Of a stretch of DNA of 59,822 bases, positions 48,457-51,870 are shown piece by piece. Origin of the DNA: Chlamydiota bacterium. GTDB taxonomy: Bacteria; Chlamydiota; Chlamydiia; Chlamydiales; SM23-39. The stretch is from positions 1 through 59,822 of the forward strand of contig JACRNF010000019.1 in assembly GCA_016219355.1 (NCBI GenBank), written 5' to 3'. A model generated the notes under the pieces. That model was given only the letters and a program-made list of their open reading frames with translations. It did not search any database and was not told the origin of the DNA. Within the stretch, counting starts at the first letter, position 1; every line of letters begins with the position of its first letter. The translations under genes and the position numbers were made by a program.

Positions 48457-49170
48457 ATGGCTACAGCTACAGATTTCGTTAGAAGGCCGGGCAGTGTTTA
48501 TTTACTTCCCGATTATGTTACAGAAAAAACAAGAGAGTTCACCCGTTTTGTAAAATTGATTTTGGACTCAGCATGTTATTTGATTCCTACACATCGTTCG
48601 CTAAGTACTGCTGCCGGAGCTATAGCTACCGTATATAATTCTTGGGATTGGACCGACCTTGCTCAGAGCATTCTTGATGTTAAAAATGGAACACGTGTTG
48701 TTATGCCAAAAAAAGATAGCACGGGTGTTATTAAGCCAGTATCTGATTTTGCAAAAAGAATTTGTAATGTTATTCTGGCATCTGATTTAGTAAATGGAGT
48801 TTGCAATGTTGTAGATTGGCTTTGCGCAACTAAGATTATTAACTTAGCGTGCAATTTTTATCGAAATTTTTCAATTGCTGGAGGTCTTACTCTATGCTTT
48901 AGCTTTGGAGCAAGAGCCGTTACTTTGTATAAGCAAGATAAAGGGTTGTCAATAGTAGATAAGTGTGATCTGGCTACAGATGTTGCACTTTTTGCAATTG
49001 GTGCGTTTGCAACTTTCCAAGCAGTTTTTGCTTATAATTTTGTTTTAGCTTACCTTGCATGCGCAACTGTTAGAGTAACTTCGGACTTTGTAAAATTTTT
49101 ATATACAAAGCCTCCTGAGCCTCCCAAGCAGGAGGTAGCTGTTGCCAATTTAGTGAAGGCAAACGCTTAG
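48457..49170 (+). CDS. hypothetical membrane protein (Inc-like candidate)
   Basis: 237 aa with hydrophobic segments in the C-terminal half (FSIAGGLTLCFSFGA; VALFAIGAFATFQAVFAYNFVLAYLACA). Orphan. Confidence 0.55.
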   Translation: MATATDFVRRPGSVYLLPDYVTEKTREFTRFVKLILDSACYLIPTHRSLSTAAGAIATVYNSWDWTDLAQSILDVKNGTRVVMPKKDSTGVIKPVSDFAKRICNVILASDLVNGVCNVVDWLCATKIINLACNFYRNFSIAGGLTLCFSFGARAVTLYKQDKGLSIVDKCDLATDVALFAIGAFATFQAVFAYNFVLAYLACATVRVTSDFVKFLYTKPPEPPKQEVAVANLVKANA

Positions 49171-49198
49171 CTTTAAGTTTTTGCTATACCTATTACAA

Positions 49199-49234
49199 AA
49201 AAGGCATTTTGTCACCTTGGCAAAATGCCTTTTT
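49199..49234 (+). terminator. intrinsic terminator
   Basis: AAAAGGCATTTTG-(9 nt)-CAAAATGCCTTTT followed by T-rich sequence. Confidence 0.6.
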
Positions 49235-49350
49235 CATTTAGAATTTATTAAGCATATTAAAATAAATCTTGTCATTCCAAATAATTTTTCTTTTTTTTAA
49301 AGAAAATACTTGCTTTAATCATACTCTTTAAAAAACAAAGGAGATGATTT

Positions 49351-50091
49351 ATGTCAGTATGTTGTGTTCAAAATAATTTTTTTACTTCTCTTAAACTTAA
49401 AATTCAAAATCTAGATTCAGCACAAGTAGAAAAAATCATTAAAATTGTGTCTATAATTGCTTCAATAGCAATAGGAATATTCTTTTCGCAAGCAATGTCG
49501 TTTGATGCGATATTTTCCGCTTTGGCTGGATTGGGATCAGGACTTGGGATTCTAGGGGCAGGGAAAGTAACCATTGCTCACTATAAGAAAAAAACAGAAG
49601 CTGCAATGATAGGGGCTTTTAAGGAAACTGAAAAAACTGTCTTGGCTGCATTTAATTCCTTAAAGCTTGACTTGACAGAATTAGATCGAAAAAAGAAAGA
49701 ATTCAAAAATCTTATTACCCAAACTCATGCTAAAGGTAAAAAAGAGATGCAGGGTCTATTAAATCAGATTCAAGAAGCAACAAAACATGAAATTAAAGAT
49801 CTTAAGGCATTTGGTAATAGAATAGTTTCTGAACTACAGTTGGATCATTTAAAATCAAGTTTTGAACATGTTGAATCGACTATAAATTCACTTATACAAA
49901 AAGGTTTTAAACTAGATAGCAATAATTTAATCGATCTAAAGGCAATACCTAGAACAATTACCACTATGGAAGAGTTAGCAAAAGAAAAATTACATCTTGA
50001 AGCTCTTCAAGCTCAATTGAACCAAGCAAGAAGTGCCTTTGAACAAACAAAGAAAGAGCTCCATGAGCTTGGCTGTGTTATTATCAAATAA
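49351..50091 (+). CDS. Inc-like protein (bilobed hydrophobic domain plus long coiled coil)
   Basis: 246 aa with IVSIIASIAIGIFF..IFSALAGLGSGLGILGAG, followed by heptad-rich, Lys/Glu/Leu-rich sequence. Confidence 0.6.
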   Translation: MSVCCVQNNFFTSLKLKIQNLDSAQVEKIIKIVSIIASIAIGIFFSQAMSFDAIFSALAGLGSGLGILGAGKVTIAHYKKKTEAAMIGAFKETEKTVLAAFNSLKLDLTELDRKKKEFKNLITQTHAKGKKEMQGLLNQIQEATKHEIKDLKAFGNRIVSELQLDHLKSSFEHVESTINSLIQKGFKLDSNNLIDLKAIPRTITTMEELAKEKLHLEALQAQLNQARSAFEQTKKELHELGCVIIK

Positions 50092-50110
50092 TTAGTTTTG
50101 TTCTTTATTG

Positions 50111-50152
50111 ATAACCATTTTCTAAACTTTTTTAGGAAATGGTTATTTTATT
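50111..50152 (+). terminator. intrinsic terminator
   Basis: 16-bp hairpin ATAACCATTTTCTAAA-CTTT-TTTAGGAAATGGTTAT (one G-U pair) followed by TTTTATT. Confidence 0.6.
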
Positions 50153-50279
50153 ATTATATTAAAATACTAATATCTTTAATTAACCTTTATAATATAATTG
50201 TTTTTTTTATTGATAATTATCTAATTGTTTGCTATAATAAATTAATAATAATAAAACATTTAAATAAGAGTTATTAATT

Positions 50280-50813
50280 ATGGCTGCAATAGCTAAAGTT
50301 CAAGGAAGTTCATTTTTTCAAGCTCATATAAGAGTCATTAACACTCTGGCGATAATGGCTGCTTTGAGTGCTCTTGTAACTTTAGGGATTTATTTGTCGC
50401 CGCTAGCTTTCGCTGCTGGACCGGTGGCTCATCTGATATTAGTTTATAGCGGAGTATTAGGTGTTGGGACTGTTGGGGTAACTGCAACTCTAATTATTAA
50501 AAATTATCTTAAAGAATTACAAGAAAAAAACCAATTTTTCAACTTGTATGAAACCGAGCTTAAAAAACAAATTCAACTTCTTGAGGATGCAATAGAAAAT
50601 TTCTATAATAAAGAAATAGAAAACATTGGGCAATTAATTGCTCATCATAAAAATATAGACAAATTAATCGAAAGTCTAGGGACTTTCGAAGGATTTTTGA
50701 CCTCTTTTCTAAAAGATAAAAATAAAATTATTGATGAACAACAACTAAAAATTAATAGGGATAGATTTGAAGAGTTGAAAAAAATGGTCTCAAAATCCAA
50801 AGAAGAAAATTAA
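50280..50813 (+). CDS. Inc-like paralog 1 (hydrophobic hairpin plus coiled coil)
   Basis: 177 aa. It shares AIMAALSALVTLGIYL, IENFYN and RFEELK with the next two genes. Confidence 0.62.
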   Translation: MAAIAKVQGSSFFQAHIRVINTLAIMAALSALVTLGIYLSPLAFAAGPVAHLILVYSGVLGVGTVGVTATLIIKNYLKELQEKNQFFNLYETELKKQIQLLEDAIENFYNKEIENIGQLIAHHKNIDKLIESLGTFEGFLTSFLKDKNKIIDEQQLKINRDRFEELKKMVSKSKEEN

Positions 50814-50841
50814 ATAATAATTTAAAATGTGAGGATAAAAT

Positions 50842-51408
50842 ATGCCAGCTCCAATTAGACCTCAAAGTGCTTTTTCTGCTGAACACAAGCTAGCAGTTAG
50901 GGTTACTACGATTGCAGCAATAATGGTTGCAATAACTGCGATTATTGCTTTAGGAATTTATTTAGGCCCGGCAAGTTTATTAGCCGGAATAACCTTTGTT
51001 GCAGTTAAGATATCGGCCCTTCCGATATTAGTCTGCATTGGTGGATTAGGTGTTGCAGCCGTTGGGTTAGCTGCCATAAGTATTAGTAAAAAAGAGGATC
51101 CTAATGAGTTGCACGACAAAAGGGAAAATATCGATTTGGAATCTGAAGATAATGGCATTGAAAATAAAACAAAGGTGCTTGCCGCATCGATAGAGGATTT
51201 CTATAATACAGAAGTAAAAGGCGTTGCGTTAGTTCACAGGCCTGAAGATGCCATAAACAAAATTTTAGGAGAATTTGAACGATTTAGAATCTCTTTTATA
51301 AACGATAAAAATCAAATTGAAGATGCTATGACACTAAAATTTTATGAAGATAGGTTTAATGAGTTAAAGGCTGAGGTTTTAAATGCCAAAGAAAAAGTTA
51401 AAAAATAA
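50842..51408 (+). CDS. Inc-like paralog 2
   Basis: 188 aa with AAIMVAITAIIALGIYL, IEDFYN and RFNELK. GAGGA lies upstream of the ATG. Confidence 0.62.
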   Translation: MPAPIRPQSAFSAEHKLAVRVTTIAAIMVAITAIIALGIYLGPASLLAGITFVAVKISALPILVCIGGLGVAAVGLAAISISKKEDPNELHDKRENIDLESEDNGIENKTKVLAASIEDFYNTEVKGVALVHRPEDAINKILGEFERFRISFINDKNQIEDAMTLKFYEDRFNELKAEVLNAKEKVKK

Positions 51409-51429
51409 ATTTTTAAATAGAGGTTAAAT

Positions 51430-51870
51430 ATGAGTGATGTTAGTGGAATTCAAAACTATTTTTCCGAGCATAAACAAGCTATTAAATATGCTAAAGTTGC
51501 AGCAATAATGGTTGCTATAACTACTATCGTAGTTTTAGGAATTTATCTAGCTGGGGTACCAGGAGGATTAGTTTTATCGGCATGTATAATCGGAGCAAGT
51601 GTTTATGGGGTGTCATTGTTGAATAAAAAGGAAAAGGAAGGAATAGATTCTTTTCGTAAAGAAGTTAATGGCTATTTTTGTCAGATACAAAATTTAGAAA
51701 AATCAACTAATCCACAATTAAGAGAAAATATTACTTTACTCAGACATCGTAGAAACTTCATCAACTCAAACAATTTAACTATTCGAGAGCAAAGAGAATA
51801 TAGAAAAGAATTTGAACAGTTAAGAAAAAATATTGAGGATGCTAGATTTGGTATTATCTTGGAATCCTAG
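51430..51870 (+). CDS. Inc-like paralog 3
   Basis: 146 aa with AAIMVAITTIVVLGIYL and FEQLRK. AGAGG lies upstream of the ATG. Confidence 0.6.
   Translation: MSDVSGIQNYFSEHKQAIKYAKVAAIMVAITTIVVLGIYLAGVPGGLVLSACIIGASVYGVSLLNKKEKEGIDSFRKEVNGYFCQIQNLEKSTNPQLRENITLLRHRRNFINSNNLTIREQREYRKEFEQLRKNIEDARFGIILES

Follow-up and report, generated by a model that had tools for sequence, protein, structure and literature searches.

Candidate inclusion-membrane proteins, including a private tandem family, between valS and pknD in an uncultured groundwater chlamydia

Introduction

Chlamydiae meet their hosts chiefly through inclusion-membrane (Inc) proteins, and what is known of these comes almost wholly from animal-infecting Chlamydia species. 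The window analysed here, a stretch of 59,822 nucleotides (nt) that makes up contig C20 of a 100-contig assembly (GenBank GCA_016219355.1; 1.55 Mb, 35% G+C, 85% complete) of an uncultured chlamydia from a groundwater metagenome, raises the question of what the five plus-strand open reading frames (ORFs), named g1 to g5, represent in the 3562 bp that separate two minus-strand genes, valS and pknD. A preliminary description, made from the sequence of the window, took them for an array of five Inc-like genes, three of them clear paralogues of a recently expanding and diverging family. All five ORFs do lie on the plus strand between valS and pknD (Table 1), and g2 to g5 are probably lineage-specific candidate Inc proteins. 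The array is nevertheless smaller and older than had been supposed, because g1 belongs, judging by its homologues, to a separate and older family with a marginal hairpin, and because the tandem copies g3, g4 and g5 appear to predate the splits among the lineages in which they are found.

Two-helix hairpins and helical tails

The in-silico criteria by which Inc proteins have been collected are two transmembrane (TM) helices of 15-32 residues separated by a loop of fewer than 30 (Dehoux et al., 2011; PMC3048545). In Kyte-Doolittle plots with a 19-residue window, each of g2 to g5 has a single long bilobed hydrophobic block near its N-terminus and is hydrophilic over the remainder, the block spanning about residues 24-71 in g2, 15-73 in g3, 16-83 in g4 and 17-65 in g5, and the hairpin within or about it being placed at roughly 24-75, 19-73, 17-83 and 20-64 respectively. 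These blocks of 42-68 residues carry a central Pro/Gly-rich break and can each be read as two helices of ~18-28 residues joined by a Pro/Gly-containing loop of 4-14 residues, so that the bilobed domain predicted in the preliminary description is found in g2 to g5; g1 is marginal. The layout of g1 is unlike theirs, its hydrophobic block being weak and C-terminal (residues 172-207, peak 1.63), and its AlphaFold2 model, all-helical at a predicted local distance difference test (pLDDT) score of 39, is unusable.

An AlphaFold2 model of g4, built from a five-sequence alignment, places the hairpin helices at residues 14-41 and 53-82 with low confidence and resolves the C-terminal part into a three-helix bundle (residues 99-125, 137-158 and 162-187) with a pLDDT of 74-92 over residues 100-188. 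Given this model, the tail, which had been described as a charged coiled coil, is better termed a compact antiparallel bundle. A Foldseek search of the model against the PDB gave nothing below E 1, and a sequence profile search of the PDB nothing below E 0.06, with generic helical bundles returned in both.

The genome that carries these genes has the marks of a chlamydia equipped with a type III secretion system (T3SS). It encodes one SctV (FHIPEP, 758 bits), clustered with SctU (bearing the NPTH motif), a CopN-like gene, a chaperone-like gene and malQ, in what we take to be the order of CT087-CT091 in C. trachomatis. The product of pknD scores 751 bits against the NCBIfam PknD equivalog NF009651, just below its 839-bit cut-off, and the synteny of pknD with valS in 14 relatives agrees with membership of the Chlamydiae. 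Across the genome, a crude hydropathy screen counts about 74 lone-hairpin proteins among 1447 ORFs, several of them in tandem arrays; this share of 5% falls inside the 4-10% given for chlamydial proteomes (Dehoux et al., 2011; PMC3048545).

The Inc hallmark that had been claimed for the array therefore stands in one half, g2 to g5 having the two helices and short loop of the definition in a T3SS-bearing chlamydia, and needs correction in the other, the tail of g4 being predicted as a compact bundle and not as a long coiled coil. None of g1 to g5 reaches the cut-off of any Pfam or NCBIfam family, and none matches a named Inc family, IncA (PF04156) giving no Pfam match up to E 1. Together with the PDB profile and Foldseek results, this places the genes outside every named Inc family. 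Matches to HlyE, to a mycoplasma two-TM family and to SpiroCoCo were sub-threshold and were dismissed as resemblance of composition or architecture.

A tandem family of three beside an orphan gene

The relationship among the last three genes is clear at both protein and DNA level: g3 and g4 share 37% identity (E 7e-30) and g4 and g5 33% (E 1e-11), and three DNA repeat pairs of 71-73% identity recur with a start-to-start spacing of 585-589 bp, which points to tandem duplication of a unit of about 587 bp. By these measures g3, g4 and g5 are true tandem paralogues, as the preliminary description had it. Common to the family are significant pairwise similarity, an A(A/V)IM(V/A)A(I/L)(T/S)..(I/V)..LG.YL hairpin, a helical tail, and an N-terminus of 15-22 residues with a conserved Q..FS.EHK.AI motif. 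Of the two tail motifs said to be shared by all three, IE(D/N)FYN and RF.ELK, both occur in g3, in g4 and in two orthologues on L005, a related contig introduced below, and both are absent from g5; where present, the former lies in bundle helix 1 and the latter in helix 3. A conserved stretch of 92 nt in the first TM helix, 72% identical and built around a long core of full identity, was the sole pointer to recent gene conversion among the paralogues and was judged insufficient.

A genome-wide count with the family profile, which had been recommended as a check, found exactly three copies and one distant match, at 1602-2213 of contig C73 (E 5e-5, hairpin region). The locus of that match (C73 620-1285 and 1602-2213; 474-1139 and 1456-2067 in the coordinates of locus L004) is a tandem Inc-like pair of 221 and 203 residues whose hairpins carry a similar LGL(H/Y)L(A/V)PA motif, and it holds the genome's sole distant relative of g3 to g5. 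Further tandem clusters of lone-hairpin ORFs flagged by the crude screen lie at C24 14713-16881 (four in a row), C29 7495-8562, C13 12674-14018, C2 1429-2452 and C46 10350-11629.

For g2, the architecture attributed to it, hairpin plus charged tail, is present, and the homology is not: compared with g3 it reaches only E 0.011, so that it is not a member of the g3-g5 family, and a common origin with g3 to g5 cannot be demonstrated from sequence, the layout alone being held in common. In layout g2 recalls the IncA family (PF04156), in which a hairpin is followed by a long SNARE-like coiled coil, g2 likewise pairing an N-terminal hairpin with a long charged helical tail; it differs in giving no Pfam match to that family, as stated above for all five genes.

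The three paralogous genes are tightly spaced, with gaps of 28 nt (g3-g4) and 21 nt (g4-g5), and each has its own Shine-Dalgarno sequence, as had been reported; the sequence is of GAGG type ahead of g1, g2, g4 and g5 and a weaker AAGAG ahead of g3. The best sigma-70-like match of the region stands upstream of g3, which suggests a g3-g4-g5 operon; joint transcription of the three genes probably starts from a promoter at about 50210-50238, a clue of position and consensus match in a region whose total of promoter-like sites is not above chance. The region contains no Rfam families.

Distribution and age of the array

A HMMER search with a five-sequence profile of the g3-g5 family against 1.84 billion cluster representatives returned only the five input sequences, and 103 genomes of the organism's own GTDB family, searched in all six frames, yielded only weak TM matches for it. 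In a word-indexed search of 5.8 billion proteins, g4 found itself and one 42%-identical protein, g1 itself and one relative, and g2 only itself. The sole outside relative of the array is L005, a 3218-bp Logan contig from another groundwater sample, on which h1, h2 and three paralogues follow one another as in the window, at about 72% DNA identity, the third paralogue being truncated where the contig stops. The sequencing run from which L005 comes, X3, also holds a strain about 94% identical to the window, in which g3 to g5 are collinear and continue into pknD. Since both L005 and the ~94% strain carry the array, it is a fixed feature of no fewer than three lineages within a single genus, and as far as these searches reach, the g3-g5 family is confined to that genus.

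Protein identity between the window and L005 falls from 84% for g1/h1 to 52% for g2/h2, h2 being the only relative of g2, and to 37-52% for the full-length pairs of g3 to g5 (65% over 51 residues of the third copy). A tree pairs g3 with h3 weakly (84/87), and synonymous divergence (dS) among the paralogues is saturated at 0.8-1.7. The g3-h3 pairing and the common gene order suggest that the triplication is older than the lineage splits. The idea of a recently expanding family is accordingly not borne out: the three copies already stand in the same order in L005 and in the ~94% strain, and their dS is saturated.

Divergence of the array and its flanks

That the paralogues diverge fast, the other half of the earlier claim, is upheld by the ratio of nonsynonymous to synonymous change (dN/dS), a measure that had been proposed as a check on the paralogues. 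In comparison with L005, dN/dS is 0.25 for g1/h1, 0.54 for g2/h2 and 0.4-0.9 for g3 to g5 against h3 to h5, at a dS of 0.4-0.7 that is partly saturated. Two valS contigs in run X3, assigned by contig depth, each differ from the window by about 11-12% in DNA, and this small difference beside the low identity of the array suggests that the effector-like genes diverge far faster than valS.

The closer comparison is with the ~94% strain, for which numbers of synonymous (Sd) and nonsynonymous (Nd) differences were rebuilt from the listed substitutions, a few contig-end differences being unlisted and the counts therefore slightly incomplete. They are Sd 12.5 and Nd 27.5 for g3 (ratio of nonsynonymous to synonymous proportions, pN/pS, 0.57; 25 amino-acid changes), 8 and 18 for g4 (pN/pS 0.63), and 2 and 11 for g5 (pN/pS 1.5, from just 13 differences), as against 18 and 12 for the pknD segment (pN/pS 0.14) and 22 and 9 for the valS segment. 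Pooled Nd:Sd is 56.5:22.5 in g3 to g5 and 21:40 in the valS and pknD segments together (odds ratio 4.8, Fisher p = 1.5e-5). The ~94% strain has zero stops and zero indels in g3 to g5. The replacement rate of the three genes is thus raised and their frames are kept open, a combination that both relaxed constraint and diversifying selection fit.

Along 50270-52802, pS against the ~94% strain is uneven (pknD 0.16, g3 0.11, g4 0.06, g5 0.02), which hints at inter-strain recombination within the array. Elsewhere in run X3, a 782-nt contig aligns over 49085-49867 with 31 differences, and at 85% likeness no X3 contig was found over 49340-49870.

The pknD-valS junction and its older resident

Among 40 related genomes, pknD was located in 39, and 20 of its neighbourhoods were inspected. 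In 14 of the 20, pknD is followed directly by valS in the same orientation, across a gap of 30-1250 bp (3 kb in one), so that the genes of the window do occupy an otherwise tight junction, as had been noted. In most relatives the sole gene in this gap is a same-strand Nudix gene of about 175 codons, which is conserved beside pknD across the order (relatives L007-L026) and absent from 48305-51866 of the window. Tblastn with two pknD-linked Nudix queries found no orthologue in the 85%-complete assembly, only weak matches on C98 and C70. Another Nudix gene of the window, in an island at about 36-42 kb, was considered as a relocated copy and rejected, tblastn giving no match in the window.

The older resident of the site is g1. 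Its homologues L025_235 (E 5e-5), L022_274 (E 1.6e-4) and L008_218 align with it coherently over the full length, and the profile of the family matches 16 of the 103 genomes and 12 of the 53 genera of the organism's GTDB family. In three inspected neighbourhoods (G023, G017 and G011), g1-family proteins are convergent with pknD; an opposite-strand protein of 218-274 residues with a C-terminal hairpin stands at the site, and the Nudix gene is absent there. The presence of the g1 family at this site in related genera suggests that g1 was there first and that g2 to g5 were added between it and pknD; g1 is therefore best classed as an older, separate family and not as part of the Inc-like array. 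In the L005 lineage, 124 nt of g1 (48659-48784) are swapped for 55 others, an in-frame shortening by 23 codons, and h1 has 205 residues compared with 237 in g1; the shortening suggests that the central segment of g1 is dispensable or variable.

Other relatives also carry hairpin proteins at the junction. In one, the gap holds a 199-residue hairpin protein together with the Nudix gene. In L016 (genome G040; 9939-11725), a relative assembled as a single contig of 2.6 Mb, the 3-kb gap holds the Nudix gene and two paralogues of 313 and 282 residues (E 4e-8) with hydrophobic blocks of 53-60 residues, which looks like an independent Inc-like gain at the same junction.

Interpretation and alternatives

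We infer along the following lines how g2 to g5 would be secreted, inserted and oriented in a membrane, and bound to the host. The short N-terminus would direct export of each protein through the chlamydial T3SS; the two-helix hairpin would insert into the membrane of the host-derived vacuole; and a C-terminal helical module, a ~90-residue three-helix bundle in g3 and g4 and a longer helical tail in g2, would face the host cytosol, where it may bind host proteins or other Inc proteins. As to origin, tandem duplication of the ~587-bp unit would have produced g3, g4 and g5 before the known lineages of the genus split, and g2 to g5 would have been inserted between the older g1 and pknD, at a junction occupied in most chlamydiae by the Nudix gene alone.

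Set beside the Inc class (PMC3048545; PMC3290821), g2 to g5 are alike in having, near the N-terminus, a bilobed domain with a short loop, followed by a helical tail that presumably faces the host cytosol, and in being small (146-246 residues), encoded in an operon-like cluster of a T3SS-bearing chlamydia, poorly conserved outside their lineage and fast-evolving. They are unlike it in having neither sequence nor fold similarity to named Inc proteins, in a pre-hairpin N-terminus of about 15-22 residues, and in coming from one uncultured genus. Chlamydia species have tandem Inc expansions of their own (Lutter 2012; PMC3290821), and these likewise involve local duplication of small inc genes, quick divergence, a kept hairpin and a variable tail; g3 to g5 differ from them as an independent family of a distant chlamydial family, at the pknD-valS site and with old copies.

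Several points weigh against identifying g2 to g5 as Inc proteins. They resemble no characterised Inc in sequence or fold; their TM assignments rest on Kyte-Doolittle hydropathy and on AlphaFold2 hairpin helices of pLDDT ~40-60; the segment ahead of the hairpin, from which export would start, is short; and no RNA sequencing run covering the region was found. On the evolutionary side, the valS contigs were matched to lineages or strains by depth only, and the overall ratio of ~0.6-0.7 is as compatible with relaxed constraint as with diversifying selection. Finally, a two-TM hairpin with a helical tail is also compatible with an ordinary bacterial inner-membrane protein whose tail would, by the positive-inside rule, be cytoplasmic.

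This last point leads to the alternative that survives best, namely that g2 to g5 are ordinary, non-secreted inner-membrane proteins, anchored by the hairpin and facing the cytoplasm, for instance with a scaffolding or regulatory role in the envelope or the developmental cycle, and resemble Inc proteins because small two-TM proteins are common. Basic residues before the first TM helix and after the second fit such an N-in/C-in topology, and there is a weak match to the mycoplasma two-TM family TIGR04527 (E 4.8e-5; 23 bits, cut-off 125). Confinement to a single genus and a nonsynonymous-to-synonymous ratio about 4-5 times that of the neighbouring genes are, however, atypical of housekeeping membrane proteins and typical of host-facing effectors; lone-hairpin proteins are as frequent in this genome as reported for chlamydial proteomes; and in chlamydiae, one environmental species included, the bilobed domain has been a good predictor of inclusion localisation (Lutter 2012; PMC3290821). 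This alternative is somewhat unlikely.

A second alternative, that the ORFs are degenerating or have no function, their high replacement rate reflecting drift under relaxed constraint, draws on the pN/pS values of 0.57-1.5, on the shortening of g5 and loss of its tail motifs, on the orphan status of the g3-g5 family and on the lack of a covering RNA run. Decay is nonetheless hard to reconcile with frames of g2 to g5 that are intact, free of stops and frameshifts, in three lineages differing by up to ~28% in DNA, or with pN/pS below 1 in g3 and g4, conservation of hairpin and motifs between lineages, retention of Shine-Dalgarno sequences and tight operon spacing, and a bundle predicted with high confidence from just five sequences; we regard it as quite improbable. 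The idea that these small proteins attack membranes as toxins, or form pores in the manner of holins, instead of serving as scaffold or adaptor Incs is barely credible, since the one Pfam hit that invites it, of g3 to HlyE across the hydrophobic region (E 0.0012; 18.7 bits, cut-off 25), is sub-threshold and limited to one paralogue, and since the loosely holin-like combination of hairpin and charged tail comes with no phage or lysis genes nearby, with a folded ~90-residue bundle unlike holins, and with no pore-former match in Foldseek.

A bolder extension of the candidate Inc identification would make the pknD 3' flank a recurrent site at which different chlamydial lineages, each on its own, acquire and replace host-facing genes of Inc type, with the g3-g5 bundle as a novel module for binding the host, shaped by diversifying selection and not by relaxed constraint alone. 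The proposal draws on the relative with two Inc-like paralogues in a 3-kb gap, on the genome with a hairpin gene beside the Nudix gene, on the g1 family in at least 12 genera and on the four genes added here; we consider it unlikely as a whole.

The locus contributes a clearly bounded private family of an environmental chlamydial lineage and illustrates the turnover of effector repertoires in uncultured chlamydiae. It offers an expressible soluble domain that is confidently predicted, three natural variants for evolutionary study, and a plain case of gene gain at a junction that is otherwise conserved. The general picture is unchanged, since orphan Inc-like arrays that are tandem and evolve fast were already known from Chlamydia: the sequence family is new, but it is of a familiar kind and does not amount to a novel system.

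Gene features and further observations

Coordinates of the genes and putative signals are collected in Table 1. The stop codons of g5 and pknD overlap in a shared CTAG.

Table 1. Features of the valS-pknD interval and its flanks (positions in the window)
Feature	Position	Strand	Remarks
valS, 949 aa, left flank	45455..48304	-	ORF; 52-65% identity to pknD-adjoining valS of 14 relatives
g1, 237 aa	48457..49170	+	ORF; older pknD-convergent family, weak C-terminal hydrophobic pair
g2, 246 aa, Inc-like orphan	49351..50091	+	N-terminal hairpin, charged tail of ~170 aa
Terminator-like hairpin, 17-bp stem then T-rich tail	50110..50147	+	just past g2 stop; consensus match only
Candidate promoter TTGATA-17-TATAAT, extended TG	50210..50238	+	sigma-70-like, 11/12 positions, 42 nt upstream of g3 start
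g3, 177 aa, paralogue 1	50280..50813	+	hairpin; helical tail with IENFYN and RFEELK
g4, 188 aa, paralogue 2	50842..51408	+	hairpin; predicted C-terminal three-helix bundle
g5, 146 aa, paralogue 3	51430..51870	+	hairpin; tail shortened, degenerate
pknD, 911 aa, right flank	51867..54602	-	Pfam Pkinase E 9e-44; NCBIfam PknD equivalog NF009651

Two further ORFs flank the junction. Across pknD, at 54718-55920 on the plus strand, a 400-residue ORF without a Pfam or NCBIfam family is flagged by the hairpin screen over its N-terminal residues 2-89. Its position presumably corresponds to that of the predicted Inc CT300 of C. trachomatis, which we take, by locus-tag order, to adjoin pknD (CT301) on the side away from valS. 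CT300 is a predicted Inc of 115 residues with the TM layout [34-54]12[66-95] (PMC3048545). It resembles the genes of the array as a small predicted Inc beside pknD, and differs in having no long helical tail, the likeness being one of position. Downstream of valS, at 44912-45415 on the minus strand, a 167-residue ORF with no family match begins with a hydrophobic, signal-like N-terminus (MRKRYPLFIMLLIFLI...).

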